A stretch of DNA of 29,007 nt from Psammoneis japonica (lineage: Eukaryota), in contig QPGO01000179.1 in assembly GCA_008632985.1 (NCBI GenBank), positions 124,001 through 153,007 on the forward strand, read 5' to 3'. The position numbers and the translations under genes were made by a program. The notes under the pieces are model-generated. The model was given only the letters and a program-made list of their open reading frames with translations, was not told where the DNA came from and made no database searches. Position 1 is the first letter of the stretch; each line of letters begins with the position of its first letter. Positions 3,100 through 29,007 of this stretch are shown piece by piece.

Positions 3100-3129
3100 C
3101 TGATTGCGTGTTGAGCTAAGACCCACAAT

Positions 3130-4024: not shown

Positions 4025-4174
4025 ACAACAAGAGCCTTGAGCACAACAGGTGGCTTTGTTGGTTGTGGGAAGCCAGGCTTCTTCAAAAAGTTCTCACACA
4101 GCAGCTTGATGGCTTGACTCTTGTGTTGCTTTTGCACCGCCACTCTTTTGTCCAAGGAATGGATGCTGTCATTG

Positions 4175-4226
4175 CATTTGGGAAGAACATCTTCATCTCT
4201 CATTTGGGAAGAACATCTTCATCTCT
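4175..4226. repeat. Perfect 26-bp tandem duplication
   Basis: CATTTGGGAAGAACATCTTCATCTCT at 4175-4200 and 4201-4226. Confidence 0.97.
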
Positions 4227-5808: not shown

Positions 5809-6017
5809 CCTGCACACTTTGTGCCGGCACTTGGCATTGCTGTTGTTGTCATTGTTTTTGTTTCGTTGCGTTGCGTTGTCATTGCATTGCACCAGCTGCT
5901 TTTGCCTGAAAGATCGCCTGCGCACTTTGTGCCGGCACTTGGCAATGCTGTTGTTGTCATTTTTTTGTTTTGTTGCATTGCGCTGTCATTGCGTTGTGCC
6001 AGTTGCTTTTGCCTGAA
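5809..6017. repeat. Two ~108-bp tandem direct repeats
   Basis: CCTGC(A/G)CACTTTGTGCCGGCACTTGGCA... starts at 5809 and 5917. Both copies end GCTTTTGCCTGAA. Confidence 0.92.
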
Positions 6018-6537
6018 CGATTGTGTCTTTGCGGCAGCATCATTGACATGGTCATTGACGACGTGTTCTGTGGGATGCGCAAGAAAATCAGTGAAACTGC
6101 TTCGATGAACGTCACAGAAAACAGAAACAACAACAGCGGCGGTGAACGGCATTGGCACGACTTGGCAGCTTTCATCCTGAAGCTCTGTTTGCAACATTTC
6201 TTTGTGGCGTCTCCATTGCATTTTTGCATTGAAAGTTGCATCCACAGGTGTTCAGGCTGTGCGACAGTTGACAAACTGATCATGGGCATCTTTCGTTGTG
6301 TTTGAAACCCTGAAAGATCCATTTGAGGCATCTCCTTTGGTGATCAAACAACCAGGTCTTTTTGGTGCACCTTGGGAAACCAAAAGAGCAACTGCGATGA
6401 GTGTGGGAGAAGAAGGAATGTGTTGCAAATGGTTGGGACACAAGTGTGCGCATTTGCAGAGTCTTCCTTACAAAGACAAGGATTTGAAAAAAAGGCACTG
6501 GAGAGAGGAGTGACTTTGCAACAACTGAAGCGGCTGC

Positions 6538-8813
6538 TTGTGTTGTGCAACTGACAAAGCAGAAAAGGTGTGGAAAGAAGCTTGCAAACCTTTTGAGAAA
6601 GAGCTTGATGTGAAAGGGGTTGCAGAACATTTGTTGCAGGTGGAGAAAGAGAAAGGCAAAAGCGACAGAGGCAACATTTCTGATGGACAAGGCTGGAAAG
6701 CGGAGGACTGCACGAAGGCAGATGCCAAAGGTGTGTCAAATTGCCAGGCATCAAGAACATGACCAAACGTCATGCAGAAGCAATGTGCACCATGAAAACG
6801 ATTCTTCGGGCTTGGGTGCAAGCTTTGGGAGACAAGTGGACAGATGTTCCATTTTCTTCTGACAAGAAATGCAATGAAGTGTTCTCTTCTTCTCTGTGTG
6901 AGATGTTTGACATGCCCATGCATGATGAGGAGGGAGAAGCGACCAATGTCTTCAAGCATTTGACACTTGCAATGACTTGCATTGAAGAGAGAGATGGGGT
7001 GGAACCTGTGTTGTTTGGCGCGCATGTGGATTCAATGAACTGTTGAGCCGTGGATTGCAATGCCTTCTTTTGTGTGTGCTTCCATTGAAGCCAAGCGATG
7101 GATGCTGGTGTCGCATTTCATTCATTGCGCACAGTTGAAAAGCATGCAAAGATTGTTTCAGACGCAAGAACTTGCAAGCTGAACTAAAAAAATTCATTGT
7201 GGATTGCCACACTTGTTCATCAAATGAAAGAAAAGCTGGGTTGACAGTGTCGGGTGTTCCAGATTGTGGTGAAGGCAGGAAGGAATCATTGCCTGGCTTC
7301 AACAAGGCAAAAGTCTATGCCGGGTTTTTGACAGGTGTGCTCACCAATCAGGGTCTGTGTTTTGTTGCATGCTGTTCAATGATCTGATTGTTTGTCACAT
7401 TTCTCTTTGCAAAGGGATCTGCCGCATCATGCAAAAGAGGAGCAATGCCAATGATCCCCTGTCCATGGCCAGAGCATGTGAGCTGCTTTCGCCTCTGGGA
7501 CTCATGAACACTTGCTCTCAGCACTGTGAGCAAATGAAGGAATGGGAGAAGTTTGGGAAGCTTTGCGATGGTTGTTGGGTTGAGGCTCTCTTGGAAGACA
7601 TGACAGAGCAATTTGAAACAGGGATTGCGGGAGGTTCCAGGCCAAGAGCAACCAATTGGTTGTCAGCATCTTTCACCCAAGAGCAGATGGTGGAAGCAAA
7701 ACAAACCATCAGAGAGACCACAGTTGGTTGCAACAATGGTGAGGAAACTCCCGAAAGTGCTGCAAAAAAGTTGTCTGGCATTTTTCAAGCAGGATGGCTT
7801 GGGGCTCAGCACATTCTTGTGGGAGCCACACTAATTGGATTGGCGCACGATGTTCGTTTTTGTGCATCTGCCTTTGTGTGCAAGAAAACGGAGACTTGGA
7901 ATTGTCTCGTGAAGGAGTGTGAATTGGGAGCAGCAACTGTTGATGCATTGCATGCAGAAGTTGCCAAGGAACTGGGCGTGACGATGACGTCATTGAGAAC
8001 ATTGTGTGCGAAGCTTTCAGAGAGATCGCAGACCCTTCTGAATGTGTGGATGTTAAAAAATGTGAAGCGGGAGCAAGTGCATGTGTAAAAGCCAATGGAA
8101 AGGTTCGTCGTCCGGATGTTTGTTTCCTGGACATGGTCGTTGTTGACACCAAAGATGACAGAAGGCAGGCGCTGTAGAAAGAATTTGGAGATGGTGACAA
8201 ATTCATTGCCAAGACAGCATGGCATGATGTTCCGGCATTGGCTGAAAACAATGAAGCAGAGACTCCTTGGATCAACTCAAGTTTTGTCATTCCCTGTCCA
8301 AGCAAAGAGATCAAAGCCACTTGGAAGACAAAGTTGGTGTCTGAAAGGAAGAAGCGGAGTGCCAAGCCAGTGCCAAAGAAAAGAAAGTGTTTGCCTCATT
8401 CCAGGTTTGGCCACATTGTGGGATTGGATGAAGCTCTTGATGCTGCCCATGCAAAGAAAGTTAAAAAGGCACAAGCGCATGATGCAGAGCAACATGATCC
8501 AAAAAGAGAGTTCAACAAGATGGCAAATGAGAAATTCCAGATTAAGAGCTTCTCCAGTTGGATGACACAAAATCGCAATGTGTTGGATTGCACATTGACT
8601 GTGGCAGCTTCTTGGCAAGATGGAGCCTGTCAATGTTTTGATGCCTTCACTGCATGTCGTGCCATGTCACTGCCTGACAAGAAGAAGATGCTGGGTGAAA
8701 GGAAGATTGTGTCGTGTGCAACCACTGGATCATCCGGAGCTTTTGGCGACACTCTGTGCACTGTCAAGTTCAATTGTCCCACACTCCAGTGTGTTTGTCC
8801 CGGAAAGATGTGA
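6538..8813 (+). pseudogene. Compact TET/JBP-like dioxygenase module + helical ENxxC domain (paralog 1), several frameshifts/stops
   Basis: FGAHVDSMNC (His codon at 7023). After a frameshift, DGCWCRISFIAHS*K (7112-7141; reads RISFIAYSRK if reverted, cf. TET2 RISLVFYQHK). Then IFQAGWLGAQHIL, VIENIVCEAFR (~7990-8021) and DVCFLDM. True start uncertain. Confidence 0.55.
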
Positions 8814-9544
8814 AAGTGGTTTTGCAATGTGGGCTTGCAAAAGGTTTTGATCAAGATGGGTTGCACTGGCATCGCAGCAAAGCAGATGCTGAGAAGGCTT
8901 CATTTTGTAGAATCCTTGTAGAGCATGCTGCGTCATTGGCGCATGATGATGCAGAACCCAGTTGGGCCATGAAGAAGCTCCCGTCAAGTGAAAAAGGCAG
9001 CCTCTGTGAATGTCACTGTGTGTTGAACGAGCATGGCAAGCAAGATTGTTTGTCGGGCTCATTGTGGGGTGTCCTGTTCTTTAGAATGGACATGAGAGTC
9101 CTTTCAATTCCCACCAACAAGCATGACATGTCGGAGCCATGGGACAGTTGCTGTTTGTTGGGTCAAAGAACTTGGCTCAGTGACTCCATCGTGCCACACA
9201 GCACCACACGCAAAAGTCGTTGCCTTCTCCATTCCATTGGAGAACCTTCTCTCTTGTTCTGCCACTTTTGGGAAAAGTCCTGATGTGAAGGGCAGACGAG
9301 GTTGCTCTTGTCTCCAACAATTGCTGGAAACTGTCGTGGTGGCTGACTGCAGCGGCGCCTTGGCAATTTTTCCTGCAAGACAGCCTGCGAGAGCCAAGGA
9401 GGTGCTCCCCGGCAAGACTGAGAGGGTGCCTCCAAGGAAGGGGGCGCAACTCCATGTGCTGCGGCCTGAATTGCCAGTGTCAAACAAATTGATCTGGAAA
9501 CGAAATTGTGTGTTGCAAGTCAAGCCGACACGGATGAGTCTGAA

Positions 9545-10413
9545 AAGTTGGACCCTTTGATGTGATTGCGGGGTGCAACGGGGTCAACTCAATTGTGCAA
9601 GACTCGATTGACAGCAAGGCCTTTCAGCAAAACATCACATTGCTGCCAGGACAATTCAAAGTTTCCGCCAATGCTGAATCCAACCTCTGCATCCTTGTTG
9701 TTGCCAAAAAAGGGTGGAGTCACTGCCTTTGTGGAGCCAACTCGAAATGGAGGAGGTTGCATCTTGTTTGCTGGCAGACAAGAGGATGATCCGATGTTCA
9801 CCAAGAACCCTCAAGAACTGGACATCATTGAGCGATGCCAGTTGCTTGATGGCATTGACGTTGACAAAGTGACCAGTCAGCCATCTAGACAAGAAGCATC
9901 TTGAGCATCATCAGTGCGGTGCAATGCCTGCCGCTGCAAGAACCTGGCACTCTGTGGAGATGCAGCCCATGCTGCAGGCGGCGTTTCTGGGCAAGGCATC
10001 AATTTGGCTCTTGCCGATGCGTCTGCCTTGGCTGCATGCATTGACCCCTTTAAGTTGCAACATGGACAAGGATCCATGGGCAAGGATGCAATTGTGCAAG
10101 AAGCTCTCTTGGTGCATTCTCAGCCCCAAGTTCCATCAGGCAAGGCACTGTGTGTGACTCATTCTTTGGCAATGGAAGCAGCACTTTTGTTGGAAAACGG
10201 ACTCGCTCTGCGCTTGCCACCGTTCAAGATGCCATTTTCCAAGGCAAGCCAAGCATTGGGCGCATGCCTCTGCAAACACTCTTGGCATCTTTGTTGACAA
10301 TGTTTGCCGACATGCAACGTGATCGTGACAGAGACTTTGACACTACATTCCCAACTGCGGAGGAATGGAGTGAGTGCTTGGCAGATTCATGTGGGCAGTC
10401 CAGCACGCATTGA
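9545..10413 (+). pseudogene. FAD-dependent monooxygenase fragment (DG and GD motifs), N-terminus missing, frameshifted
   Basis: GPFDVIAGCNGVNSIV (DG motif) and LALCGDAAHAAGGVSGQGINLALADA (GD motif). No GxGxxG Rossmann start found upstream. Confidence 0.85.
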
Positions 10414-10888
10414 TTGCATTGCTGTGCTTTGCCAGCTGAGGGGTGCAATCCCCGAATGTCTTGGACAATTGTGAGTTGGCAAAGGTGCTGGATGACTCCA
10501 TGTCGGGTTCTTGACCGGCCGAATTTGTCGTCTCTGGCACTCAACTTGTGCTGATGAAGTTCAAACGAGATTCTAACCGAGGACTCACCGTAATCAAGAA
10601 GAGGAGTCACATTCTCTAGACCACAGTGCAGCCACCTCGGTGGACCACATGAGCTCATTTTGTGCACAGAACATCAGATGTTGAACTCTGAACAATGCGG
10701 CACAAGCTCTTGACACTCTTTAACACAAAAAAGGTCTGCGAACTGTGCTGTCGACCTGCGCCTTCTGCCACTAGAGAGAGTTGCTAAATCCACCGCAGTC
10801 TTGTGCTGTGACAACAGGGAGGTGCAGCAGACCGAAATGCACGCCTGTGCAAGAAAAGATGAAAACTCCTTGATGACTTTGTCGTAAA

Positions 10889-11820
10889 ATGTGTGTCAAA
10901 TGTCAAGAAATGAAGTGCAATGTTGAGAAGCACCCTTGCAGTTCTCGTGGTGCAGTGCCAGCTTTTGTCCAAATGTTTTGCAAGGTGCAAAACAAGGCCT
11001 CCAACAAAACAACTTTTGCATGTCCCATGGCATTGACAGCGGTGAACAAGGAAGAGCACATGAGTTTTCCCGCAGGCTCCAGTTTGGAACCTTTTGGATG
11101 CAGCAAAAACGGGTGGAGACCTGCCACCTGCAAAGGCTCGTCAAACCTTGTGTCAAGGGGAATGTCCGCCATTGAATTGACATGGACTTGTTCTGCATGT
11201 GGGGCCAATTGCACTTGTGTCTCTTGATGCCACTGTCCTGAGAACTCATTTTGCAGACAAACTGCAAAACGGAAAATGTTGGACGCACTTGCCACTCATT
11301 GCACAAGGGTTTGAGCAAGGGATGTGATTCAACTGCAAATGAGGCTCACGCAAGGCATGGCATTCATGAAGAAAGAGTCATGCCTCCAACTGTGGGGTTG
11401 AAGCTTGATGTGACACAAAGTGTGGATTGGAAACTTGATGATCCAACACCTGATGGAGAAAGTCCACCTGCACTTCATTGAACGATCCTCATGCACAACC
11501 ACCACAAAGCCTTTTTGTTTGACTTTCTGGACTGCATCGGGATCTGCAGTGTGCATCATTGCCAAGGATGACAAGGATTTTGGGGTTGGCAGGCGCCTGG
11601 ACTTTGGTCTCACCCACGCCATGGAAAAGAGGTTTGCGTGGCCATTTTCAGTGAACTCCTGGCCACCCCCCACAACTCCAATGACATTGAGGGAATGACA
11701 GCGCACTCATCTGTCAGCAGACAGACCCAGACAGAAATGCAGAGGTTGACTTTCTCTTGTTCCAGACAACTTTTCTACATGAAGCACCTGCCAATTGTTT
11801 CTGCGTGGAGTTCTGCATGA
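10889..11820 (+). pseudogene. Degraded gene of unknown function
   Basis: Successive protein-like plus-strand ORF pieces (10889-11227, 11251-11481, 11638-11820) separated by TGA stops or frameshifts. No recognised motif. Confidence 0.3.
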
Positions 11821-11845
11821 ATTTTGTGCCAAAAACTCGTCACCA

Positions 11846-13207
11846 TGACAAATCCTCCGCCGCCGCAGGCTGGCCCTGCCAGCGAGTCTCTTCCTTGTCC
11901 TCCCCCTGATGAGGACACCACTCCATCCACTCCAGCCAGAGCTGGATCCAGAAAACCCGAAAGCTCTTTGTCAAAAGAGATTGCCGCCCGTTTTGAACTC
12001 ACCTCTTCTGACGACAACGCATCCACGGTGGCATTGGCGGTGGGTCATGCTGCAATTCTGAATGCCCCTCAGCAGAAAGCCACCCAAGATCCCTTGATGA
12101 ACAAGATGGCAATTGTGCCCAATCATGGCCCAAAAATTCCTGGGGTCAATGTTGTTGAGTGGACTTCCGGGCTCACTCATTCTCAACACTTCATTGTGCA
12201 ACACATGAGCTTCAGAAGCTTTGCAATCCCCCACCGTTCAACTGGTCGCTTTGGTGCAAAGAGCGTTAAAAATGTTTTGTGATGAAATGGGTTGTCTGCA
12301 TTTCTGTTGTGAGGACGTCACCCTGCAGGGATCATGCACATCCTGTGGTCAATTTTGTGAAGGACACCGCGACGTAAAAAACTGCACCTGGCTTCTGTGT
12401 CGGAAAACAGCCGCTGGTTGTTTCTTTGTCATGGATGCCTTTGGCGATGTGTGGTCCTTCAAGGTGGTCACCAACAGCAGAAGCCCCATTGGTCAATGCT
12501 GTGACGACAAGCACGACATGAACCGGATGTTGACTTGGATGCACCACTGCCAAGCTCAGCTTGACTTTGTGCTTGAAGACATGGATCTCCAACACGATGG
12601 TCCCACCCATCCTGACTCTGTCCCAACCGCGTGCAAATTCAAAAAACTCTCACTTGATGACAGCCGTCCATGGAATGAAGTTGTCATTGGCGGAGGCGGT
12701 GACACGGGAATTCCCCGTGTGCACATGGATCGGCTTGAGTTCCCCACATTCCCTGTGAGGGACTTTCACCTGTCCACCCCAAGCACAGCTCTGTTCCGTT
12801 TCAAGAACATCGTGCACAGATCTGGGCCAGATCCGAAGCGAGTCATGCAGTTGGCCATTCATGCTGGTTGTCTGACTGGGCATAGCCGATTCTACACTGC
12901 AAATGAGAATCACTCTGAACAAGCTGTTTTCACTCTAAATAAAAAACAAACAGAGCATTTTGCTCCAGTTGCAAGTGCTGAACAATCAATTGTGGCTTTG
13001 CTCTGTTTGAGCCACAGTCAGAGCAACATGCTCTGTGCACAAGACAATCAGAGCAAAATGCCAACATTTGCCCTGTTCAACCGCATTCAGAGGATGCCTT
13101 TGACCAAGTCCAATCATTCAGGGCATTTGCTTCAAACAACTGCAGCCTCCTGCGACCTTTTACATTCTCAGAGCAAATGGTTTTTTTTCAAAGCAAACGA
13201 ACAATGA
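11846..13207 (+). pseudogene. Compact TET/JBP-like module (paralog 2) with Pro/Ser-rich N-terminus
   Basis: EDVTLQ...FCEGHRDVKNC (His codon at 12365; cf. TET2 HAHRDLHN), followed ~20 aa later by VWSFKVVTNSRSP. Spacing is similar to paralogs 1 and 3. Confidence 0.5.
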
Positions 13208-13520
13208 ACACACACACACACAATGAGACGCAATGATGGACGATTCAAAGCGTCATTGGCGCACATGCACGCATGCATTCATGGTTGCATGTCAATGCTC
13301 GTAATCTCGTTTTTGTTTGTGGCGATCTCGATGAGCATCGTTGTTGCTCTGTTGTTGTCAATTGTCGCCTTTGTCGGCGCATTGCACACACAACACAATT
13401 TTTGCATTTCCACCTTTGTCTGCACAAGTCATGGCCTCCACAGCCTTCTCCACATGCTGCAAACATTGCTTCTCGACTGTTCCATTGACTCAATGTGACA
13501 ACTCCAACAGCATCGTAAAC

Positions 13521-16500
13521 ATGGGTGATTGCCTCCATTCCGGCAAATGTCTCAACCCGGAGTGTTCAGTTGATTCCTTTTTTGTCTGCGAATGTTGCTG
13601 GAACAGCAGCAACACAAACAGCGGTGGTCGTCATCTTCCAATTCTTAAAGATTGGAAAACCTGCGTCAAGCACGCCAAAACTCCAACTCATGTGCAATCC
13701 TTTGAAGCTTTGAAAGTCGCACCAACAAGCAGTGCAAATGCTGTGTGTGCGCCGGCGGAGCCTGCACACGACGAATGTTGGTGCAACGATGACAATGACG
13801 CCTCTGTTTCCGAGAGCAAGGAGCCTTCCAACCAAGATGATTGGATTTACGACGTCAATGATGCCGGCTCACGTCCTCCATTGCGCATTGATGATCTCGA
13901 CAAGGTTTTGATCCGGGCTCCAACAGCCCGGCCTTTTTTTGGTGCGAGCATTCGCACCCCGGACAAGGCATCCAGAAATTGACAGCTGACGCTTTCGAAT
14001 TGCCCGTCACCGAGGTGACCAAAGAAGAGGCCCATTTTTCACTTGTGATGGCTGGCCTGCTTTCACAACTCACCAAGAAACAACGTGAATTGTTGGCAGA
14101 ATGCATGCTGCAAGCCACAAACAGCCGTGATCCAGACTTGTCCATTTTTCGTCGGACTCGTGTCCCCACTTCTGTGAAAGATTTTGAAATGTTGCATTTG
14201 TCCAGCAAACGTGCCATTGTGCCAAATTTGCCTCATCCTGTTCCCAGGAAAACCGATGATGGCAGTCATTCCTGTGTTTCTTTTAAAGACGTGCTTGCAA
14301 ATGAGTTGGCAAAAGCCACGCAATTTGACAAGTTCTATTTTGATGCGGACGTCATTGTTCAAGATTCGCAACCTGCCATTTCGCGCACACCGGCGGCGCA
14401 TTCCTTGTTCATGGAACTTAAAGAAGATGTCGACGGTTTTGTGTTGTGTCTTTGGGTGCGAGAATGGCGTGATGACTTCGATCCCAACGGCACGAAGAAG
14501 TCACGCAATCAAGTGTGGCTTGACACGCACACCTGCTGCCCTCCTCCCAATTCTTCCAGTGGATGCCACACCCACTTCATGGCAATGTCGTCCAAGGGAG
14601 AAAATCATGAAGTTGTGGAGACAACATTTGAACGTGAACTGCAGTCGTTGTCTGAAGAATGCCATTGGTTTTACCATGGCGGCCTGCAGAAGCTCATGCG
14701 GGTTAAAGCTGGCAAACTCAGTGTTTGTGTGGATCGGCCTGAACGTTCCTGCATGTTTCGTGTTGGAGACCACAATGGCAGCTGTTCAACGTTTTGGGAA
14801 CATGCCTGTCATGTAGATGGAAACTGTTCTTTCAATCACTTGCCTCATTGTCAGCTCTGTCGCAAAGCACATGTGAGCAACCATTTTAGCACGTCCGAGG
14901 ATCCTTCTGATGTCGCTGACAATTCACAGGAAGAAGGAGCACCAGTGGATGGCGCAGTTGCAATCAACGTTCCTCCTGTTTCTAGCACATGTCCACACAA
15001 TGCTTGTGCATCCTGGAATGTGTTCGACACCGCGTTTCGTTTTCTGGCTCCGGCTGACTGCCCCTGTTCACATGACCAACGCGAAGGTGCACCGAAACCT
15101 CCCACTGGCAGGGAAGTGACTGTCTTCAACCCGTCGGCACATGACATCCAATCCACTCAAGACTTGGCCACAGATCCATCCACATCGACCGATTCTTCTC
15201 GTCGCAGACGCAAACGCCAACGTGTGGCCGCCCCAAGACAATGGTTGGCCTCCATCAAACTCACTGTTCCCTGGTTCAGCAAGCGATCGTGTTTGCGCAT
15301 CACAACATGAGAACACATCCGCCGGGCACCCCAAGTGCCAAGCGCTTTTGGACCAAAGCAACCTCACGGCCCATCTTCGCACTTGTGCCGTCATCCAACG
15401 CCACATCGACACAGTGTGCGCAGCTGCAAAATGCAATCTGCCTTGCCCAACACATCCAGCACCTTGGCTCAATCCCAAAGCACTTTCACGTTGTCATTGT
15501 GCACCAATGCACACCATTGGTCTGGGCAATGTTAAAAGTGATTTCGAAATGATGTCCAAATTGTTCTCTCGATTTGAACTTCAGGCAACCTTTGGAAAGC
15601 AAGCAAACAAATGCTTGCGGTCCATCCAGTCCCTCCGATCAACCAAATGTTTTGCGGCTCATCCACTGTCCACCAGCAAGTGAGGCACAGGTCCCTGGGT
15701 CAGTGAAAATTGCTTCTTTTGGGCAAGGACAGTAAAATTTATGGTCACGCTGCCTTCGCTTCACCAACAACGGGCAATGGACAATCACTCGGATCATGCA
15801 GGTGTGTCACGGATGTTGCTTCGATTCGCTTCTGCCACACAAGCTTGTCTGAGCCGAGTCATGTCTTCGAAGCGCGTTGTTGGGGACCTTCACGAAATGG
15901 TTTTGATGTTTTGGATGCAATGGTCGAGATGGACATGTGGTTGATGAAAGCACCCTCAGATGAGGCAGACAACGATGCCGTAGAAGGCGACGGTGAAGTT
16001 CAGAAGAAAAAGAAAAAAAGGCGAACTTTGTGAAATCTGTTTCACTTGGAATGCTGGGAGTCGCCGAATCCCACCAACATGATGGACCGCCATTTGCATT
16101 GGAGGGTGACGATTCTGGAGAAAGTGGTGTGCAAACTGTGAGGCCAGAGGTCAGCATCAAACGCAGCAATGCAGACTGGCAAACAATCGCTTTGCGTCAC
16201 ATTCACCAACAGGCAACCATTTCTTGGCTTTTAGAACGTGACAGTGAGAAAGGTTCATCGAAGAACAGACGTCTAGATGGCATCTTCAAAATCTACAGCA
16301 ACTGGAACACATTGTTGGAGGCAAGACAGCATGCCTTCCCTTGCTGCCTTGTCGTCCGATTGCACTGTGTGGTTGTTGTTTCGACCAGTGGGTGAAAAAG
16401 GAGCCACTCGCTCCTCTGCAACTGCAGTTGCTTTAGAATTTGTGGATGAGGAAGGTGAAGAAATTTTGGACTTGTGTTGGATGGCGCCAGTTCAAGCAAC

Positions 16501-16717
16501 AGACAGGAGAAAATCATTTGATGCGGCAACAGATCTTTGCAACAGTTTGGGACATCAGTTTGTGCTGGCATTGCCAAGGATGGAAGATGATGGTGAAACG
16601 TTCCTAAACAGCTTTCATTGTGTCAGCCATCTGTGGAATGAAAGAACCAGAGATGGATGCTTTGTGAAATCGGAACTCAGCTTGGACGTTTTCGACGATT
16701 GGTTGACAGCCGGCTAA
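13521..16717 (+). mobile_element. CACTA/EnSpm (CMC)- or Plavaka-like transposase pseudogene with N-terminal Zn finger
   Basis: N-terminal CxxxxC..CxxC..HxxxxxH. Core motifs LWVREWRDDFDPNGTKKSRNQVW, CVDRPER..GDHNG, CQLC, APMHTIGLGNVK, PWVSEN and a C-terminal HDGP..EG...E segment. Several frameshifts and TGA stops; ends at TAA 16715-16717. Confidence 0.72.
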
Positions 16718-16920
16718 CCATCAACTGCTCTGTCATCCGTCTCGGTTGACAATCCAGCCTGTGTGGGGGAGACAATGGCATGAGCAGTGCACGTGCTCCA
16801 ATGGTGGATAGACCCGTGAAGGAGCAGCGCACATGCTCTTTTGTTTAAAGACGCGCTGTTGTGGCCGACACGCAGCTAGCTGCGGGGGATAAGAAGGACA
16901 TGCGAGCTGGGTGTCTGCTC

Positions 16921-19228
16921 TCATTTCATGTTCCTCTTTTTCTTTATGAAGCAGAACTGTGCAGATTGGTCCCTCATTGCGTTTGACATTTTGTTTTTGG
17001 CCAAAACACCCAACATCGCCTCTGGTGGATTAGACAGCAGTTTGTTGAAATTGAACTCAAATGCAATTTGAATGGGGCCATGATCCCAGGTCGACCCGGC
17101 CCAATCATTGTCCTCACACAGTTCTTTGGCAATCTCCTCCATCGTTTTTTCCTCACTTTTGTCTGAAAAGTTTTGGATTGATCCACCGGGAGGCAGCAGC
17201 TCTTCGGGGTCACTGGAACCATCAAAGTGACAAAGAAAATTCGCCTCATCGTGGAAAACAAAAAATGACATTCCTGCAAAATGGACATCGCAGCAGCTCA
17301 CCCTCCCTTTGCTGATCCAGAAGCGAAACATTTTGCAAAGAATGTTCTCAACAAAACGAATGGTGAAGTGAGTGTCTTTCTTGTCATCACCCCCGGGGTT
17401 GTTCAACTGCACAGTGAATGCACCCTGTGTGGTTTGAGCCAAACGGAACATGTCCGCATCGTCCATCTTGCCCAGTCCACATTCTTCGGCAATTTTTGTG
17501 TCAGGGAGGGAATCCTTTTTGCAGTGGCAATGATGCAGCATCCAAATGGGAAGCTGGCCAATTTCTGCCATGATCGCAATCGAATGATTGAGATGCAAGA
17601 CGTTGCATTGCGGGGAGAATTCAGACAACTGATTCATCAGTTTCTTGCAAACAGAGACGATGTCTTTGTTTTGTGGCTTGTTTGCATGCTCATTCCAAAT
17701 GTCACAAATCCACTTTCCCTTTTTGTCATTCCGTTTTTTCCATTCAGCCTTGGTTGGGAAGGGTGGTCTCTTGCTGCGCGATGCACATCGTAGAGGGATG
17801 CCTCTAGAATGTGCCTCTTTTACGTGGACCATCATTTCATAAATGAGATGTCCCAATCAACGGATAAAAGAACCAACGCAACTGCTCCAAAGCAATGTGA
17901 CTGCGCCGGGCACACCTCGAAGCAAGTCTGAACAGCAACAATCTGCGGCAACGCAAGTGAGAATTTGTCAATCATTGCGACAATGAAGTGTAGAAAGAGC
18001 TGGTGGCATGACGTTGGCTCCATGTTGCAGTCGCCTTTTAATGCATTGATTCCTTTGTGTCCCTTAAATCCTGTCAAGTGATCACAGACAATTGCCGGCT
18101 CCAGTGCTGCCGGTGCAGAGGCAAGTTTTGGCAGGCGCGAATGGCTCGTGTTGTGACGGGCAAGGCAAGTCGAATCCTCTTCTCCGCAGTTTCTACAGAA
18201 CTGCGGGTGCAAGCAATGGCAGCATCTCTTGTTTCTCCATCATCTCTGATTTTTGAAACAGACAAAACTGGGGTCATGTCTTTGTTTTGGCCGTTGCATT
18301 CATCCGAGTGGCAATCCACAATTTTGCCAAATTTGGCATTCGCCAGACGCAGTGCCTCCACGACATTGTTTGTTGAGGCATCCGGCAACGAACCCGCACA
18401 GTCTTGACGTCGGTTTTTCATCTCTTCATTGTGCCACAATCTAGATGTAAAAGTGGGATTCAGTGTCTCCGCAATTTCAGACATTGACTCAAAAAAAGGC
18501 ATTGCTTCCTCAGTCCCTTTCCCAACTCGAGGCCGTGCAACACCATCAGCATGGCCTTCCCTTGCAGTGCTTGTGTTGGTGCAAACGCCGAAATCTGCAA
18601 AGTGGTCCTTTGGTTGACAATGGGTCCCAGTTTTCTTGGGCTTGTTGCTTTTCTTTTTCTGAAAACGTTTTCTCTTGCCAGTTTTCTTGCCAACATTGCC
18701 TTTCCTTGTTTTCTTTCCCTGGTTGCTTTTCGACTCACGTTCATGGCATTTGTCAATCAGCACGCGCGATCGGTCCCAGTCAATGCGGCAGATTGGGTGT
18801 TTGTTTGGAAAGTGGTTGAGCACCAACATGAAGTCATTGCAATGGTCGGAATCAACATCACACAAGGACCATTTGATGTCAGTTTCATCCTGTCCAAGTG
18901 TTGACGCCAAATCCGGAATTGGCACTTGGCAGTGGGAGATGTCTGCTCTGCTTGCCAAGCAAACCTGCAGTTTCGACTGGAAGACAACATGCAGATGGGT
19001 GGCATGCTTTTGCCTGCGCTCTCCAGACAGTTTCCCCAAATTGTCAAGTGCTTTGGCTTTTCCAGAATTGTGACGGAAGCAAGCACTGTTCATCTCCTCA
19101 ATCACAAAAACAACATTGAACATGTTTTTGGCATGCAAGCTCTCTTCTTGTGGCAGGGAACGGGACAACACCATTTTCTCCCGCCGAGTCTTGCAGTTGC
19201 CAGTGAAAGTTGGACGCTGCATCTGCAA
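16921..19228 (-). pseudogene. Compact TET/JBP-like module + helical ENxxC domain (paralog 3), frameshifted
   Basis: NVVEALRL...VDCHSDECN (His codon at 18308-18310), then ETRDAAIACTRSS (18194-18234). Downstream FVENILCKMFR (~17325-17355) and DVHFAGM match ENIVCEAFR and DVCFLDM of paralog 1. Confidence 0.55.
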
Positions 19229-20583
19229 GGGCAGTGATGCCTCAAAAGCGCTTGAATGGCAATCAGATGATTGTCTCTGCTTCCATTGGGCAAATCAGAA
19301 TCGGAGAAATCAATGGGAAGTGCTGACACAAATGCGCCATCATGCCAATGCGATGATTGGTCACTCTGACTTGAGAAAACAGAATCAATGACATTGCTGT
19401 TCATTGATTGTTCCTCAACGTGATGCACAGAAGCCGAGTCCTCATGGCGTTTTGCTTCTTCCCGCATGTGCTGCTCACTCAGCAAGCAAAGCAACCGGTC
19501 TGCTGGTCTTCGCTTGCGAGGAGGTGGAGACCGTCCCAGGGGAGATTCCAGGCTGCATGACCTGGATGTGGCAGATCTTGTGCGGTGTGAGATTGGACTG
19601 CTGCTTCTGTTTCTGCGGAGTCGCATTTGATGAAATGGGACCATGCCAATGTTGGTGGGTTGACTTGCTCTGCTTGAACTCCTTGAGCGGATGCTGTCAT
19701 CTGCAGAACGTGCGGGAGGATGGCTTTTGTCCCAACCGCGACTCTCAGATTTCCTCGATGCACCCTGCCTGTGCGAGCGCAACGAATGCCTGGGTTTGCG
19801 AACACGCGATCGACCCCGACACCTGGATGGTGACCTCAACATTGTTGGAGACCTGTTTTTTGACCTGGAGGGTGACCTGCACCTGGATGGTGACCTGTGC
19901 GGTGACCTGTGTCTGCGCCGAGGTGACAACCTAGACCTTTCATTGGAAGAATCCAGAGACCTTCGACAAGACCATTGTGGTGAACTGGATGGAGACCTTT
20001 GGCGTGACCTCTGCCGCGATTGCGATCGACCGTGGTGATCCCCACATGGAGAGCAAGGAACAGCGCCACAACGTTCCCTGCAACTGTGCCAGGAACTTGA
20101 GTGATGGCGACCCATGGATGGTGACCGACACTGTTGCAGATGCCATCGACGAGAATGAGACCTAGACCCAGAATGGCGAGACCTTGATCGACAAGGAGAA
20201 CCACGCGAAGAAGTTCCAGAACAACAACGATGTCTGGTCCAATGACGCGATCAAGACCGAGAACTTGACAAAGAGCGAGACCGAGGACTTGACCAAGACC
20301 GGGACGGCAATTGACACCTTCGTCGTTGGTGGGAATTTGACCTCGACCTGCATCGCCGTTTGGACAGTCTGCGTTCCCTGGATCCGTTGTTTGGATTTGA
20401 CCACAACCGACCTGTGGAACTTTGAACAGGCGATTTGGATCTTTGACGAATCAAGCGACCCGGCAGATTTCTTGATGGACGTGCACTCCTTGTCCTTCTT
20501 CCCTCAGGAGCGCCGGATCTGCTGCAAGCGGGAGCGTCACATTTGCCTTTTCTGTGGTGCATGGATGGCTGGAATTTGAGCAA
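19102..20583 (-). pseudogene. Arg/Ser(Pro)-rich low-complexity coding region, probably the N-terminal part of paralog 3
   Basis: ORFs 20251-20583 and 19102-20115 share a frame, interrupted by TGA. They encode RSRSP/RSPSR repeats on the same strand as, and overlapping, the 18074-19228 ORF. Confidence 0.5.
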
Positions 20584-21253
20584 GCAGATGCTTCAATGAA
20601 AAACAATGAGAGCAGAACAGCTTCACAACTCCTTTGTCATTTGCACGAGAATGTGATCGTGCGATGATGATGTCGCCTTTGTGTGGTCGTGATTGAGAGA
20701 TGATGCATGTTGGGTGAGTCAGAACATCGGAATCCGGAATTTTGCATGTCATCCCCTCACGTGGCCAACTGGTTGTGGCCGCCTGCAGCGCCACAAACAG
20801 AACACCACAAAAATTCTGCACTCATTGTAGAATTCAACAAGAAAATGAGTCCCCTCTTTTCCACAACATCGCTGCATTTGCCGCATGTTGCAACAACACA
20901 AATGTCGGAAAAGCATGCATCCATGACACCGCCGCTGACACCGCTGTTGTCATCAAACTTTGCTGTTTGTGCAATGCTGTTGTCATTCATCCTTCCATTG
21001 CATGTTGTCATTTTTGTCAACTTGTTGACAAGTGTTGACAACATTGTGACCTTTGGCAAAGGTTCATTGCAAGACACCACCAGAACCAAAACTTCATCGC
21101 TGCTGTGAGAACAATGCTGAGCTCACGGCGCAGTCTGTGCGTTGTTTCTTTATCTCGCATCTCAGACAATTTGGTGTGCATGCTGCACTTCGTTGACTCT
21201 TTACAATCATCATCAGGTGCTGCCACGAAATTGGTCACAGACAAAGTCAGCAA

Positions 21254-21923
21254 CTTCCCTGTGTCTCTGCGTCAACTGCTGACAATTGCACAGCAACGGA
21301 CGAGTGGGACTGCCAGTCCGTCGCCCAGCGATGTTCCGCCAATCGGTTTTCAACAATGAGACCTGGAGAACTGGCTGGGGCACCCTCGTTGTGTCGCACA
21401 GTTTGAAGAAAAGGGGACCGGCTGATCTGGGTTGTGTTGGCAGACGGCGCAAGCTCCTTTTTCCTTGACGTTGTCAAGAACACACATGTTCCAAGGCCAC
21501 CATTGTCGGTGGGTCGTCTCCGTCTGTCATGTCTCTTCCCTGCATCTCCACGTCAACTGCCAACAATTGTGCAGCAACGGACGAGTGGGACTGCCAGTCC
21601 GTCGCCCAGCGACAATCCGCGATCGGTTTTCAATGATGAGACCTGGAGAACTGGCTGGGGCACCCTCGTTGTGTTGCACAGTTTGAAGAAAAGGGGACCG
21701 GCTGATCTGGGTTGTGTTGGCAGACGGCGTGAGCTCCTTTTTCCTTGACGTTGTCAAGAACATGTGTGTTCCAAGGCCACTGTTGTCGGTGGGTCGTCTC
21801 CGTCTGTTGCATCTCTTCCCTGTGTTTCCGCGTCTGTCGCCCACCGACAGTCCGCCAATTGGGTTTTCAACAATGAGACCTGGAGAACTGGCTGGGGCAC
21901 TCTCGTTGTGTTGTGCAGTTTGA
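21254..21923. repeat. ~280-bp tandem repeat (two full copies and one internally deleted partial copy)
   Basis: Units start CTTCCCTG at 21254, 21535 and 21815. Long identical blocks include GAGACCTGGAGAACTGGCTGGGGCAC in all three. Confidence 0.96.
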
Positions 21924-21965
21924 CGCAAACAAGGCAGCAGCAAAGGGAAGCGAGGATTCCCTGCG

Positions 21966-24900
21966 ATGTCAAGGGACAATGGAATGAAAGCTCTTGCCAA
22001 AGCGGCTGTTGTGGCTTCCCAAGAAGAGAATGAGGAAATCCGGTTGTCACAGGAGGAGAACAACCACAATTCCCAGGAAGAAGATGTGGAAGAAGAGGAG
22101 GAGGAAATGCGGACGTCAGAGGAGGACAAGGAAGCTGTGAATTCTAAGGAAACAGACAATGATGCTTCTCAGGAGAAGGAAGATGCGGGTTCTTTACCAA
22201 AATCATCAAAATCCAAGGAGGGGGACATTCAACACATTCCCACCAAGCTCCGGCGTTTCGTGAATGCAATCAAACATGACATGTCAAAGTGTGTGCAGGA
22301 CAATGTCCACCACACTTGTCCCTTGTTCACCATGGTCAACCCAAGCACAGAACCAAAATCACTGACTGCACTGGCAAATTCTGGATGCAGGCCGAACAAT
22401 CGCGGGAAGAAACCATTTTGTTGCATCACAACCAGAAGGGGTTGTCATCCGACTTCGGCAAAGAAGCAAGTAAAAAAGCAAGGGAAGCTGCAAAGGATTT
22501 TCTTCTTCGTGAATTTAATCAAGAAAACGAAGGCAACATTGTCGACTTGTTGAACAACAAACACACTCACATTTTGGGAATTTGTGCAATGCCAAAAAAT
22601 CAAGAAAGCGGCAAACTGGCAACTGATCTTGTCGCTGCATTGTTGCATCGGTGCATTGAATTGGTGCCAGTGACAATTGTTGACTGTGTTTGAGTCAACA
22701 GAGGAGCCAAAGTCCACAACCATGGGTTGTGCCCCTTCCTGATTAGCCTGGCTCAATCCATCGGCTGCACGGTTGTTGGCACTTGGGACACAATGCTGCA
22801 TTGTCAAGTCAAGCTCAAACAATGCTGCTGTGAAAGTTTGGGTTTCGAGGACATCACAGAGGAAATGAATGAGGAGCCCTCTTGGGAAAGAGCAAGACAC
22901 CATTGGAGTTGGAATGCTTTGATCAAAGAGGACGGAGATGACACCAGGGCACTGATGGTGAAACGCAGAGTCACCACACGTTGTGCAAAAATTGCGTTGC
23001 CCATCTCTCACACAGAGGATGATTTCCAATGCCATGTGAAACATTGGCGAGATCGTGTTGGGTTCTGGAGCAGCAAGAAGAGACCCGCCGATCAATGCCA
23101 AGATTTGGTGGATCAAGAGAAAGACCTCATCTACAAATTGTCAGTGGTGATGGTTGGCAATGCAACACTGGATTCTTTTAAAGATTCCTGGCAAAAACAC
23201 ATGGATGGACGCCAATGGTTTGACATTGGAAAGTGCGTTTACGAATCCTACGAACATTGCATGGGTGCAAGTGACGCCAACCAAGTTAAGTCACATTTCG
23301 AGACAACGGCTTTGTTTGCCGCAAGCATCAATTTCTCCTGCCAAATGAGCAAATTGGCAAATGATGAAACATGGAAAAGAGCGGCGTTTCGATCGAGGAC
23401 TTCCGAGCTAGCTCAAAGAGCGAAATGTGTGAGGGGCAAGTTTGGCGCAACTGCGGAGTCGGGAACTGACAACCGGAAGCATGTTCTCAACCCCAAGTGT
23501 TGCCAATGGAGTCGGAGCAATTCAGATGAAGACATGGAAATGGAAATGCCTTCAGGTGATGATGGAGCCACACGTCAACTTCTTGAAAGAATCCATTTGA
23601 AGTGCAACATGGTGTTTCCCATCGACTACAACCAGGAAGATCAAGGTGGACTGTCACCAGCAGCAACTTTGTTTTCAGCGCTTGCGGGACCTTGTCATGA
23701 TCATGCAATGTGTGTTCCGGGCAAGCACCCCATTTGCACTGCACAAAGCAAAAGTGCAGTGTACAAACTGCTGGTTGGTGCTGCACAAGAAGACAGAGAG
23801 ACTCTGAAGGACCCAGAGAAACGCCAAGTGCGGTTGAACAAAAAGGATTTCTTTCTGCCACCTTTGCGACACATTGCAATTTGGTGCAAAGAAGCGGAAC
23901 AACTGCATTTGCACCAGATCAATTGGTTGTTCCGACAATGTCATTTTACAGAGCTGGCGAAGGAGGCGATGCTTGACAAAAAATTCTCTGCCAGGGGAAA
24001 CAAGCGAGAAAAGAAGGAACCGAAACCACAAGAGGGAGATGGTGACCCAGAGGAAGAGGAGTCCAAATCGGAACCAGAAGATCAAGGTCTCCTTGTGTCA
24101 CGAAGAAAAGTGTTGTCTGCTGGGGACAAGAAATGTCAAGATCTACGTCATGAGGCGAGGATGCACCATGAGGATGCCAAAGAATTGGCACGGCTGCATG
24201 GTTTTGAGTGGGCCGATCGGGCCACACGGCCGGATGAAAGTGAGGTGCCAGGTGATGCTGTTGATTGTGAAGGACCAGTTTTACATGGATGGTTCGAAGA
24301 TTTCAAGCACGGCAGAACATTTGCTGAAGACCATTTTGGAGCGACGAATGACAAGGACATTGGAGGAGGGAAGATGAACCTTGTTCGAGCTGCAATTGAG
24401 GAAGCTAAAAAGAAACCTGACACAAGAGTGAAATTCAATGCTGGGCAAAAGAGGCAAACCAGCAAAAGAGCCGATCACATGACAAACAATGGCCAGGTTC
24501 ACAAAGTGAGACGGCTGACAGAGAAGGAGCTGATGAAGGAGGGGCTTGCAGCCGATGATGATTTTGAAGGTCCGGAGGGAACGCCAGCATTCGTGGGGGT
24601 TGGCACAAGGAAGAAACCGTGCTGTCATGCCATGGAGTGGGCAAGAGCCAATTTTCAGCAGCGATGTCCCACAGTGCACAAGGCCATGTGTGATTGGGAG
24701 CCAGGGAAGAAATGGTGCAGACTGCCGGAGGGTCACGTGTTGGATAAAAGCGGGCTGGAATTTCCCAGCTTGGGACCCCCAGTCAAACATCAACAAGGGG
24801 AGAAAGACACGTGCGTGTTTTCGAGCCTGGCCAGTGTCCCAAATTACATTGGAGATGAAAGGATGGAGCGATGTGTTGTGAATTACATGGATCATTCTTG

Positions 24901-25313
24901 CAGATCAGAGAACACCAACAACAAACGGTTGGAGTTCGCCACTGGCATGTTGTTGGGACAAAAGCAGAAGCTTTGTCCTCCACTGGCTGCATCAATGAAG
25001 TGGCACGCATGCAAGAAGCGTCAGAAAGTGGCAGCTGGCAAGAAGCGATGACATCGTTCTTTGTCGGTTGACAAACAATCATTGCATTGCTTTGCATGGT
25101 GGTTGGATCTTCAACTCCAATCATGAATTCGCTCTTCTGGCAAAAGACATTCAGTGGTTGAATTGGTGTTCAGGGAATGACACATTTGAAATGGGTGCAC
25201 TGGCAGAAGATCCAAAATCAGCAGTGGAGGAAGCAGTTTTTTTCAAAATGCCGAAGGCTGTCCAAACAAGGTTGCGTAAACGCAAGCAGCAAGAAAATGC
25301 AATTGTGGGTTAA
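21966..25313 (+). pseudogene. Large multidomain gene: acidic N-terminus, GNAT-like acetyltransferase, C-terminal papain-like (C39-type) cysteine peptidase domain
   Basis: Glu-rich stretch at 22020-22190. GNAT-like VAALLHR..IVDCV..HNHGLCPFLISLAQ..LHCQ..QCCCESLGFE (~22630-22850). Peptidase-like QQGEKDTCVFSSLAS (~24790-24835) and HCIALHGGWIFNSN (~25080-25120). 774-aa open segment at 22727-25051. Confidence 0.6.
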
Positions 25314-26653
25314 TTCTTCTCACTTGGCATGGTTGTCGGGGCCAACGATTTCAAGGCATGCAGGCGTTTGCGAGCCACCAATGTTTTGCTGACAAGCCCG
25401 GCCTTTTCTGCAGCACGCAACAGTTGGCACGTTTGCGGCAGTGTGTGAGGCTTCCCACCAAGGACATTCATCATGAGCCCCTTAGTTTGAAAACACGTGC
25501 CCGCGGGTTGATCCACAAAATGACTGAGCAATTCATGTGTGCCACTCATTTCCTCATCCGTGTGCGGGTGTGCGTTTAACCAACAGCGGCATCCATCAAC
25601 AATGCATTGGCTCACAAGAGGCTTCATCCACTGATCGTGCTTTTGGACTTTCACGTTGTCCAATGGGGTGGCGCAAAGCAAAGGAAGGAAACAATTCTTG
25701 GTCACTGGCGTCAGATCACTTTGTTTCACAGGAGCAAACACAAGCAAGCTGCTGCCCCACGCATCTTGCTCTGTCACTTTGAGTTTCTTTAGGACAGTTT
25801 GTCGACGCTCGGCTGTGAGACAAAACTGTGAAGTTGCAGTCTTCCATGTCATGACAATTTGTTTGCAATCCATGCCCGCGGAGGTGCCACGATTGGGAAG
25901 AGATGATGTCATGCTGCAAAACCGATTGCAATGATCGGGTTTTGCTAAAACTGTGCCAGCTTGCAGCCATTTGCCCATGGTGACACAGGCAACAGCATCA
26001 ACAAAATGCTTGGGTTTAGCCAGGCATGACAGCATGCATCCACTGCGTCTGCCCGTCACAATTTCGTCAACAACAATCTCAAAGGAATGGCGGTGAGCCA
26101 ACCGACCGAGAGATTCTAGAAAGTTGTCGCTGAGTGTTGCACCATTGTTTGCCAGCATTGATTCTAAAAACAATGCAGTGATTGGCGCCTTCTTTACAGC
26201 CTGCATCAAAAACAACGGAGATGAGTGTGGTTGAGACAATCGTTTTTGCACTCACTGAGCTCCGCGGAGCTCAGAGTGCCTGGCACATGATGCGGCAGCG
26301 CAATGGTGTGATTGCGTGTAAAAGAGTCAAACACGTCGTCCGGATGCATTGCCGCGCTCAGACCATGTTCTGCACTGAACGTGCTGGTGGTCCAACAGTG
26401 GACAGGCCCATGATCACCGGCCACATAACTTCCACATGCAGTCAAACATCCATCGTTTGTGCCCTCCCGTCACAGAATCAATTGCAAACAAATTTGCATT
26501 GGAGCCGTTTGGCATCACTTTGTACAGCAGCAATTCGCCATCAAAGTGACGAAAGATGACTTCTTCTAACTGCTTGTGATGGCCGATGTCCATGGAAGAA
26601 TTCATCAAATCTTCGCCATTGCATTTTGAGCCACGCGGGCTAACGGCAACCAA
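25310..26653 (-). pseudogene. Class-III PLP-dependent aminotransferase-like gene, frameshifted
   Basis: PNGSNANLFAI, GSYVAG, ITALFLESMLANNG, EIVVDEIVTGRRSG and VTMGKW (PLP lysine), spread over three overlapping ORFs. Confidence 0.8.
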
Positions 26654-27377
26654 ATTTCACCCCCAATTGTTTGCCATGTCGTCCATGGCATCGTTTGGGA
26701 TTGTTCAACGCGCAAAAGAGCAAGATGCAAGATTCAAGAAGAGTCCCAAAAGATGATTGGATGGAAAAGAGGGGAGGGATCGCAGTTCTGTTGATGGGCT
26801 TGCGCAGCGCAGAGGATTTGTGAAAATGAGGTGGAGCAACGCATGTGCTCTCAATCACCAAAAGCGCAAAACACGTGCATTCTGCTGCGCTGCACATTTG
26901 CAGACAAGCCCTGTGCGCAGGGCCCCACACATGTTCCACACGCTGAAAGAGCAGCATGCGCGCGCGCATGTGCTCCCACCCAATCGTGTGATTGCACAAT
27001 GCATTTCATTCAACAACGTAGATGAAGCGAGCACTTTAAAAAAGAACACACATGAAAAATCAAACTTCAATCATGGAAAATCACACATTCAAAAGTGAAC
27101 CAATGAGAACCCAATTTTTGTTTAAGGAAAATTTTGTTTCAAATGGGAGGAAAGAACAATCTTCTTAACACAACAGGTCGACATGGTTGTCAATGTTCAT
27201 TTCAGAACAACAATGCTTGATTGAAACAATGAAAAACACAGAAAAGAACAAAAATGAGTGCAATTCAAAAACCGTGCAATGAGAACATGCAACCGTGACT
27301 TTGCAATTGTGTTGAATGGATTTGGCTCGTCCCGGACCATCCACAAGCACAAAAAGCGATTGGAAGTCGAAAACACA

Positions 27378-28858
27378 ATGACGAATTCATTTCATCAGAC
27401 ACGGGTGTCGGTCGTCAGCCTTGATCTTACAAACACATCGAGGGCAAACACTTCAACAGAGGGAAACACAACCCCGTCAAGGACAGATGTTGCAACAGCG
27501 GGGAACACAGGTGGGTGTGTTTGAAATCGAAGTGTGCGTTTGGAAGCCAACATTGTGATCTGACATGCAGTGGGAAGCTTCTGTGACAAATCCAGGGGAA
27601 AAAACAACAGCACCCAATCGTCCATTGGATTGTCCAAGAGACTTTTTCCATCCAACGACAGGGGCCAACCCCACAAGACCAGAGGATGCTGCTCTTTTGT
27701 GGTCATGCCAAAAGGCACGTCCACAACTTGGTGAGGTAGAGATGGTGCCGCCCAATGGCAAGAAGATGCTTCAAAAGGTGGCACAAATCCGGTCGTCCCT
27801 TCGACAACACGTCATGACTCAATGCCTGGAGGGCTGTCGAAAAAATGCAATGGACAAGGAAGTGGCAATGCCATCAACAAACACCAATCCCGTCACAACA
27901 GAAGACTTCAAAAACATTCTGGCAAGCATGGACAACACAACCAAGAATCAGCAGCTCGTGCATCAAGTTTTCCACGCCTTTCATTGCAACAGAGGATGGC
28001 TGGCTGCTGCCATTGACAAATGGTTCACCGTAAACAACATGAAGCTCATGCCGCACACCACGGATGCTTCCAGCAAACCTCGCAAAATGCACCGCGATGG
28101 CAGAGGCGGGTTTGCTGTGGTGGCACGCCAAGCCAAATGTCAAACAATTAAAACGTTTGTGGAGTTCATGCTGCGGAAAGCAGGCTGGTGTGTGGCAACT
28201 GCAATGCACAAGAGCAACAAGGAGAATGGAGGCAAAACACATGTGGCTGTCCCCGCTGCAACCAATGTGGAAACAACAACCAAAGCAAAGTTTTACGTCG
28301 TGTCAATGAAACCAGTGGCGGCGAGTTAGTCGCACATTGTTTGTTTGTCCTTTTGTTGACAAACTTGTTTGGTTGACGGCTTCGTCCCCATTTCCAGTCC
28401 TTGACAGCAGGAGGAGAACACCAAAGCATCAAAACAAGTTGCTCAGGGAGCATCCAGCAAAGACATTGACATTGCATCCCTTGTGGACCTTGCGAAAACA
28501 GCAAGCATGTTGTCAGAACAAATGGAGTATCCCTGTCCAGGAAGATTTGCTCCAGTCGATTCGTGGCAGCATGACAGTCACCAGTTCATCCCAAATGGTC
28601 AACGAAGAGATTGTGCTTGATCCGCAACATGAGTCCAAAACTCAGGTGTCAACACTGACCATGGACACCGCGCTAAATTGCCCATCCGAACCAACGGCAA
28701 AGCGGAAGTTAACCAAGAAGGAGAAGGAGGCAGAGCAAATTCCTCGTCGGGAGCGCAATGATGAACTAGAACCCCTCACCATGGATTTGGATGTCATCGA
28801 TGGTTGGAATTCCAATGACGAAGAGTTGGCAGAAATGGTGTCACAGGTGACTGTGTGA
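27378..28858 (+). pseudogene. Gene of unknown function, probably with short introns, may continue past the window end
   Basis: Protein-like ORF 27565-28329 plus flanking ORF pieces separated by short T-rich segments ending in CAG (e.g. 28321-28397). AT-rich upstream region at 27040-27260. Confidence 0.4.
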
Positions 28859-29007
28859 TTTGGTGGTCCAATTGCTGTGGTGTTGGATGGCTCTAACCAA
28901 CTTCCGCTTTGATGCCTTGTTTGGCTTGTCAGACACAGTTGTCTGGGTCCCCTTGTTGCAGGACGGAACAAGAGCCCGGGAACGCTCCAGCGGCAAGAAA
29001 AATGCAT

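Follow-up and report, generated by a model that had tools for sequence, protein, structure and literature searches.

Copies of a tandem repeat in a TA-depleted 29-kb region point to TpA-specific mutation to saturation after duplication

To judge from the available part of its text, a single 2026 preprint on Bigelowiella natans is so far the only description of TpA-specific hypermutation: Mettrop et al. report it for integrated NCLDV and virophage DNA (10.64898/2026.01.13.699255). According to the same partial text, hypermutable regions acquired approximately 6e-7 mutations per site and generation in a mutation-accumulation experiment, versus 3.5e-10 elsewhere; 230 of 231 mutations in these regions were A-to-G or T-to-C, and every GC-directed mutation in them fell on TpA (10.64898/2026.01.13.699255). 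Clusters are defined there as at least three consecutive 1-kb bins with a Rho for TpA of at most 0.43 and a Rho for CpA+TpG of at least 1.52 (10.64898/2026.01.13.699255). Fungal RIP, the closest established analogue, as presented in the accessible part of the RIPCAL paper, changes CpA to TpA, creating TA and stop codons (PMC2621366).

The stretch of eukaryote-like DNA analysed here (29,007 bases, hereafter the window) belongs to the kind of sequence described once, and very recently, in B. natans, and has the base composition by which clusters were defined in that organism. All 29 of its 1-kb bins show a TA o/e of 0.16 or less and a CA+TG o/e of 1.52 or more, these being also the highest TA Rho and the lowest CA+TG Rho, with the Rho formula as interpreted by us. 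Over the whole window, which retains 151 TA, the o/e values are 0.08 for TA, 1.62 for CA, 1.66 for TG and 0.54 for CG. AT (0.89), AA (1.27) and TT (1.30) are not depleted, indicating that no general AT-to-GC drift is at work in the window. No edge of the depleted domain was seen in the 1-kb bins of the 29 kb. Fungal RIP was rejected as an explanation, since it leaves an excess of TpA with depleted CpA/TpG, the opposite of the values just given. Indeed, RIP and the process seen here have in common that dinucleotide-specific transitions ruin repeats, that the dinucleotide skew is strong and that copies are mutated independently, but in the opposite direction: the window loses TA together with TAA and TAG stops, and its open frames lengthen. 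Counted on both strands, there are 138 TAA, 87 TAG and 1322 TGA. The scarcity of TAA and TAG leaves 78 stop-to-stop frames of at least 120 aa, distributed across all six frames, and Tyr makes up 0.1% of the 20,934 residues encoded by the 142 open frames of at least 90 aa. Searches of the window for rRNA, tRNA and Rfam matches returned none. The main features are listed in Table 1.

Table 1. Location of the features discussed in the text, in positions of the window.
Feature	Position	Strand	Extent	Characteristics and basis
TA-depleted, CA/TG-enriched domain	1..29007		whole window	1-kb bins
Diflavin reductase relic	3003..4093	-		without Tyr; Flavodoxin_1 (E 6e-11), FAD_binding_1 (E 5e-5)
Kynurenine-3-monooxygenase-like pseudogene	9553..10386	+	C-terminal half	one in-frame TGA, one frame change
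Transposase-like ORF P0003	13895..15307	+	471 aa	relatives by protein comparison
Tandem repeat copy 1	21254..21533		280 bases	without TA; Tandem Repeats Finder, alignment
Tandem repeat copy 2	21535..21813		279 bases	global alignment with copy 1
Partial third repeat copy	21815..21929		unit positions 1-20 and 63-159	nhmmer, blastn, MAFFT
Open frame P0042, downstream of the repeat	22694..25048	+	785 aa	weak distant relatives only

Some compositional features vary along the window. The CpG o/e is lower in 1-12300 (0.31-0.43) than in 12301-29007 (0.55-0.79), TA being equally depleted on both sides. TG exceeds CA by +0.13 to +0.30 at 5001-9000, alongside a positive GC skew, and CA exceeds TG (-0.26) at 27001-28000. 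These kilobase-scale imbalances possibly reflect a strand effect of transcription or coding.

The original prediction concerned the tandem repeat. It held that copies 1 and 2 differ by about 12 CA/TG swaps and only about three other changes, that neither contains TA, and that about 15 CpGs are intact in both. Tandem Repeats Finder delimited a single array at 21254-21822 (period 280, 2.0 copies, 90% matches), and nhmmer and blastn located the partial third copy, which lacks unit positions ~20-62; neither program found copies of the unit in the 29-kb window beyond these three. Elsewhere, an exact pattern from the unit had 0 matches in viral_contigs, and a pattern in which one swap site was relaxed to Y/R had 0 matches in metagenome_contigs. 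The global alignment of copies 1 and 2 contains exactly 12 swaps (alignment columns 11, 17, 29, 38, 81, 104, 200, 233, 235, 251, 278 and 280). The other differences are few, as had been claimed, although they number four rather than three: a T/A difference adjoining a swap, a 1-base indel, CAA/CGA and TCG/TTG. No TA occurs in 21254-21930, and no site of the repeat is half-converted (TA/CA or TA/TG). Exactly 15 CpGs are kept in both copies, and two are mutated in one copy only. The seven strings quoted as examples in the prediction were all found as written in copies 1 and 2. Going by these counts, the same reciprocal double change in 12 of the 16 difference events is far beyond chance. The three copies were also aligned, as had been proposed together with the prediction: at the three swap sites that they share, the patterns (TG,CA,CA), (CA,TG,CA) and (CA,CA,TG) occur once each, every copy being the odd one once, as expected of three independent conversions.

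A CA/TG swap takes one hit per copy whether the ancestral dinucleotide was TA or CG, and it is the pattern across sites that decides between them. The argument that a CG ancestor would need 12 double hits was thus half right, in that the lack of single hits is decisive, whereas the double hits apply to a TA ancestor as well. Decay of methylated CpG yields TG and CA, as the process inferred here does, and is also active in the window, as its CpG depletion and the two single CpG hits between the copies attest; the swap sites might therefore be former CpGs whose methylated C was deaminated on opposite strands in the two copies. With 15 CpGs intact and two hit once, however, the loss of CpG amounts to 0.0625 per copy, which leads to an expectation of 0.033 discordant double hits versus the 12 seen (Poisson probability of 12 or more, ~4e-27), and a model with CpG ancestors and one rate is rejected (G = 34.8, 1 df). 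CpG decay is, moreover, unable to remove TA, and TA is missing. Former CpGs are for these reasons a very improbable source of the swaps, and CpG decay as the sole cause, which should leave more single than double hits and use up CpG wherever hits are saturated, was rejected.

Saturating mutation of TA should leave neither TA nor half-converted sites, and concordant sites should be roughly as frequent as discordant ones. Neither TA nor half-converted sites are present, and the 15 CA and 23 TG that copies 1 and 2 have in common leave room for approximately 12 concordant sites that would once have been TA. From 12 discordant, 0 half-converted and 0 intact sites, a lower 95% bound of 0.936 follows for the conversion per copy, corresponding to a rate x time of at least 2.75. 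Thus, since the duplication, each copy would have lost at least 94% of its TAs versus ~6% of its CpGs, the latter decaying far more slowly in the repeat. The other aligned columns (~255) carry 3 substitutions, which makes 0.006 per site and copy. Arithmetic on these repeat counts places the TA rate at ~470x that of other sites, and at no less than ~160x on conservative bounds, the comparison being one within the repeat and not with the rest of the genome. The two copies hence demonstrate that mutation came after the duplication, ran to saturation and, within the repeat, was hundreds of times faster at TA than at other sites, in agreement with the prediction that TA ancestors had been mutated to saturation in each copy at a rate far over background. 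TA ancestors mutated independently in each copy after duplication would account for all the data, and they are supported over CG ancestors because single hits are scarce while 15 CpGs are intact; each of the 12 swap sites would individually derive from a TA.

Two further duplications were observed in the window. At 870-1203, a local duplication of 163 bases (85% identity) with a 42-base inverted repeat contains 2 CA/TG swaps, and at 5809-6021, a 107-base tandem duplication (~89% identity) contains 1. Both differ mainly by single transitions, as if they had been copied once most TAs were already lost.

The repeat is the local read-out of a property that spans the whole window, and homologous proteins served as outgroups for the coding relics outside it. 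The transposase-like ORF P0003 has 36 relatives at E <= 0.001, with identities of 50-60% for the closest; megabase-sized contigs carry several of them, and some fall into clusters with as many as 158 members. Profile searches of Pfam, PHROGs and PDB assigned no family to P0003 or its relatives, a protein atlas pointed weakly to Plavaka transposases (score 0.88-0.90), and no relative was found in viral_contigs. An alignment of P0003 with 10 of the 36 relatives contains 12 columns with a Tyr consensus; one is still Tyr in P0003, the others being His (4), Cys (2), Phe (3), Val (1) and Asn (1). The His and Cys residues are encoded by CAT, CAC, TGT and TGC, so that CAY or TGY stands at 6 of the 12 columns, and the invariant Tyr that survives is encoded by TAC. 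P0003 thus retains Tyr in 8% of Tyr columns, versus 21-100% retention for other residues, and its Tyr content is 0.4%, versus 2.0-3.9% in homologues. Similarly, three of the four aligned Tyr columns of the kynurenine-3-monooxygenase-like pseudogene are now Cys, Cys and His. Compared with protein outgroups, TAY codons have become TGY or CAY within the window yet outside the repeat, which argues further against CpG ancestry.

The remaining relics are less informative in this respect. The diflavin reductase pieces are probably exons of a dead gene, and the positions aligned with Tyr of solved P450 reductases are Phe, Trp or gaps, in an alignment that is not clean. P0042 has six weak HMMER matches (best E 8e-8), with no passing Pfam family among them, and no word-index relatives. 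On the minus strand, 19105-20250 holds an open frame of 382 aa that is rich in Ser and Arg, of SR-like low complexity and without a family match. As to a viral or other foreign origin of the target, a transposase-like ORF with many relatives was found, and no viral hallmark gene was detected in the window with Pfam or PHROGs, a detection weakened by the mutations themselves.

Duplication followed by saturating TpA-specific mutation of the window's TAs to CA or TG is the reading that we favour, with a probability of roughly 0.78. The 280-base unit would have been duplicated in tandem while it still carried about 24 TA, and a TpA-specific process would then have altered essentially every TA in each copy separately. 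TA to TG would represent A to G on the top strand and TA to CA the same change on the bottom strand; opposite outcomes in the two copies would give a CA/TG swap, and equal outcomes would be invisible. The same process would have swept the 29 kb, comprising the multi-copy transposon-like element, the tandem repeat and the neighbouring pseudogenes, and removed Tyr codons as well as TAA and TAG stops. It can make no new stop, because the only possible change of this type is TAA to TGA, already a stop. With TAA, TAG and Tyr codons erased, frames stay open, and proteins are ruined by missense changes.

The directions of change bear on where the process acted. At the 12 swap sites, copy 1 reads TG, TG, TG, CA, TG, CA, CA, CA, CA, CA, CA and TG, and over the 5,936 CA/TG sites of the window the direction shows no short-range autocorrelation, suggesting hits on both strands, site by site; the process would have acted on the DNA in place. 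A-to-G changes would also arise if a double-stranded transcript were edited by an ADAR-like enzyme, reverse-transcribed and the edited copy inserted, and the available part of the B. natans preprint notes that ADAR usually favours an A preceded by U and that it works on double-stranded RNA derived from repeats (10.64898/2026.01.13.699255). Such a retrocopy should carry A-to-G changes on one strand, whereas copy 1 mixes TG and CA, and A-to-G and T-to-C changes are interleaved without strand runs both within 280 bases and within the window. Moreover, the tandem copies diverged in place, the low-copy flanking DNA is affected equally, and family searches found no reverse transcriptase in the window. 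An ADAR-edited retrocopy is extremely unlikely on these grounds and was rejected.

Selection against TA, for instance by evasion of a TA-specific nuclease or of TA-targeting transposons, is scarcely credible either. Mild TA avoidance is a feature of many genomes. In bacteria, TA is described as mildly avoided in the accessible part of a published study (PMC11282364). Nevertheless, conserved Tyr positions have been lost from the window, its genes are broken, and the choice between CA and TG is random between repeat copies that were identical, all of which speaks against selection.

The survival of TA depends on its flanking bases. TA has survived at 3 of 1,419 RTAY sites, at 71 of 3,238 sites of mixed context and at 77 of 1,430 YTAR sites (chi-square 81, P ~2e-18), and in the palindromic contexts at 0 of 332 (ATAT), 2 of 351 (GTAC), 14 of 263 (CTAG) and 32 of 460 (TTAA). 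These counts suggest that the putative process prefers TA with a purine on its 5' side and a pyrimidine on its 3' side (RTAY). Context-dependent regeneration of TA is an alternative explanation of the same survival bias.

Public sequencing runs provided a comparison beyond the window itself. Among the runs listed as matching words from 20500-23500, there was one DNA run (X1) and no RNA run; X1 contains 42% of the sampled words and may be the source data of the window. A total of 1713 X1 contigs fit 9008-29007, of which 485 are at least 99% alike, 544 are 95-99% alike, 526 are 90-95% alike and 158 are below 90%. Their summed depth, which is not a copy number, is far greater from ~12.3 kb on than at 9-12.3 kb. 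The many contigs and their depth indicate that the 12.3-29 kb part is one of a family of numerous related copies. The related X1 contigs, 85-100% alike, begin near 12.3 kb, and ~12300-29007 is probably a large repeated element, with the transposase-like ORF, the tandem repeat and the 785-aa open frame inside it.

The X1 contigs differ from the window by transitions at 639 places and by transversions at 142. The best-supported 40 of 818 differences, none of which lies inside the repeat, were sorted into classes. At 16 of the 40, the window has CA or TG and other contigs have CG, a count that also speaks for the CpG origin weighed above; at 7, the window has CA or TG and other contigs have TA. 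One TG/CA swap accounts for two adjacent positions, window TA stands against CA in other contigs at 1 position and window CG against TG or CA at 2, and the remaining 12 are other differences. TA ancestors are thus directly visible at some CA/TG sites of the window (the 7 of the best-supported 40). The excess of CG over TA among these 40 indicates that CpG decay also feeds the CA/TG pool of the window. Its share of the private changes of the window copy is at least as large as that of TA, which limits the CA/TG excess attributable to TA.

In the low-copy part, X1 contigs match the window closely, with 1 difference in 568 letters and 13 in 1431. A second run, X2, comes from the same sample; contigs from it are ~87% alike to 9472-10584, a stretch that includes the kynurenine-3-monooxygenase-like pseudogene, and continue into TA-rich sequence; loose ends of X2 contigs homologous to 9.2-11.5 kb have 15 TA in ~162 letters. 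One X1 contig is likewise ~87% alike to 9472-10584, at a depth near that of the window version (60.7 of 119.1). TA-rich contig ends in the same sample indicate that the depletion is not sample-wide, and argue that it is regional and does not stem from the sample or the chemistry, on the strength of few such ends, which might belong to another organism.

These contigs bear on two further explanations. A sequencing or assembly artefact, in which a modified base at TpA is misread strand-wise and the consensus is chosen randomly, would give just the outcome observed, a random choice of CA or TG wherever TA once stood. Separately built X1 contigs nevertheless reproduce the low-copy part at the few differences given above (X1 possibly being the source data), homologous contigs from the same sample are TA-rich, 151 TAs remain, including the TAC of the invariant Tyr in P0003, and TA survival varies with the flanking bases; such an artefact is highly improbable. 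An untargeted, genome-wide mutational bias against TA, with the window as merely unconstrained DNA, would fit the depletion of all 29 kb without an edge, low-copy pseudogenes included. It is unlikely, as the ~87% alike contigs of the same sample continue TA-rich, one of them at similar depth, and P0003 homologues on megabase-sized contigs, possibly from other species, have the higher Tyr content mentioned above.

In comparison with B. natans, as far as the available text of the preprint describes it, saturating TpA-specific mutation in the window would share several features with the known case (10.64898/2026.01.13.699255). In both, only TpA to TpG and TpA to CpA changes are found, evidenced in the window by the swaps that make up 12 of the 16 copy differences, the lack of TA and the change of Tyr codons to CAY or TGY. 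In both, low TpA is combined with high CpA+TpG across runs of 1-kb bins, and the affected sequences are mostly unannotated, transposon-like or degraded. The rate in B. natans is roughly thousand-fold over background; in the window the figure of ~160-470x refers to other sites of the repeat. In contrast to the NCLDV region of B. natans, for which the text gives a TA Rho of 0.45, the window is saturated over at least 29 kb. Its targets differ too from the viral ones reported there, namely a multi-copy element resembling a transposon, a tandem repeat and cellular-type pseudogenes, with no viral gene recognised. Neither a tandem duplicate used as an internal clock nor an RTAY/YTAR context was found in the available text of the preprint.

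By analogy with what has been proposed for B. natans, the process may be a genome defence directed against DNA that is silent, repeated or foreign. Its chemistry might, with more reserve, be an enzymatic deamination of adenine in the 5'-TA context, working best in RTAY; an ADAT2-like enzyme deaminating adenine is proposed in the part of the preprint available (10.64898/2026.01.13.699255). As the main alternative chemistry, we suggest that the thymine at TpA is modified and mispairs with G, which would have the same outcome.

Six metagenome contigs encode relatives of P0003. Four of them have TA o/e values of 0.60-0.69, and the other two, L005 (1-4378) and L006 (1-2751), have values of 0.13 and 0.04, together with CA/TG values of 1.5-1.7. 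The P0003 relatives on these two contigs have 26-29% identity, and no DNA similarity to the window was found in either contig. L005 and L006 are ~69% alike, too diverged for a clean count; CA/TG is the commonest double difference between them (7), and transversions dominate.

A wider proposal, to which we would give somewhat less than even odds, is that the window, not being from B. natans, exemplifies a RIP-like defence of opposite chemistry that is spread among protists. This defence would destroy TpA on both strands, best in RTAY, run to completion on transposons and on tandem and gene duplicates, and inactivate genes by loss of Tyr codons and not by stops. If this is true, L005 and L006 would be further cases.

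The window represents the saturated end-state of TpA hypermutation, and it offers a candidate extended motif, with RTAY converted and YTAR spared. The tandem duplicate acts as a built-in clock, from which the order of events and, without any experiment, a rate ratio can be read. Long frames in all six frames and the near absence of Tyr make gene callers and homology searches fail on such regions; the former would over-predict in TA-depleted regions like the window, a warning for annotation. If it is targeted, the TpA mutator would be the second known dinucleotide-specific repeat defence of eukaryotes after fungal RIP, operating in the opposite direction.
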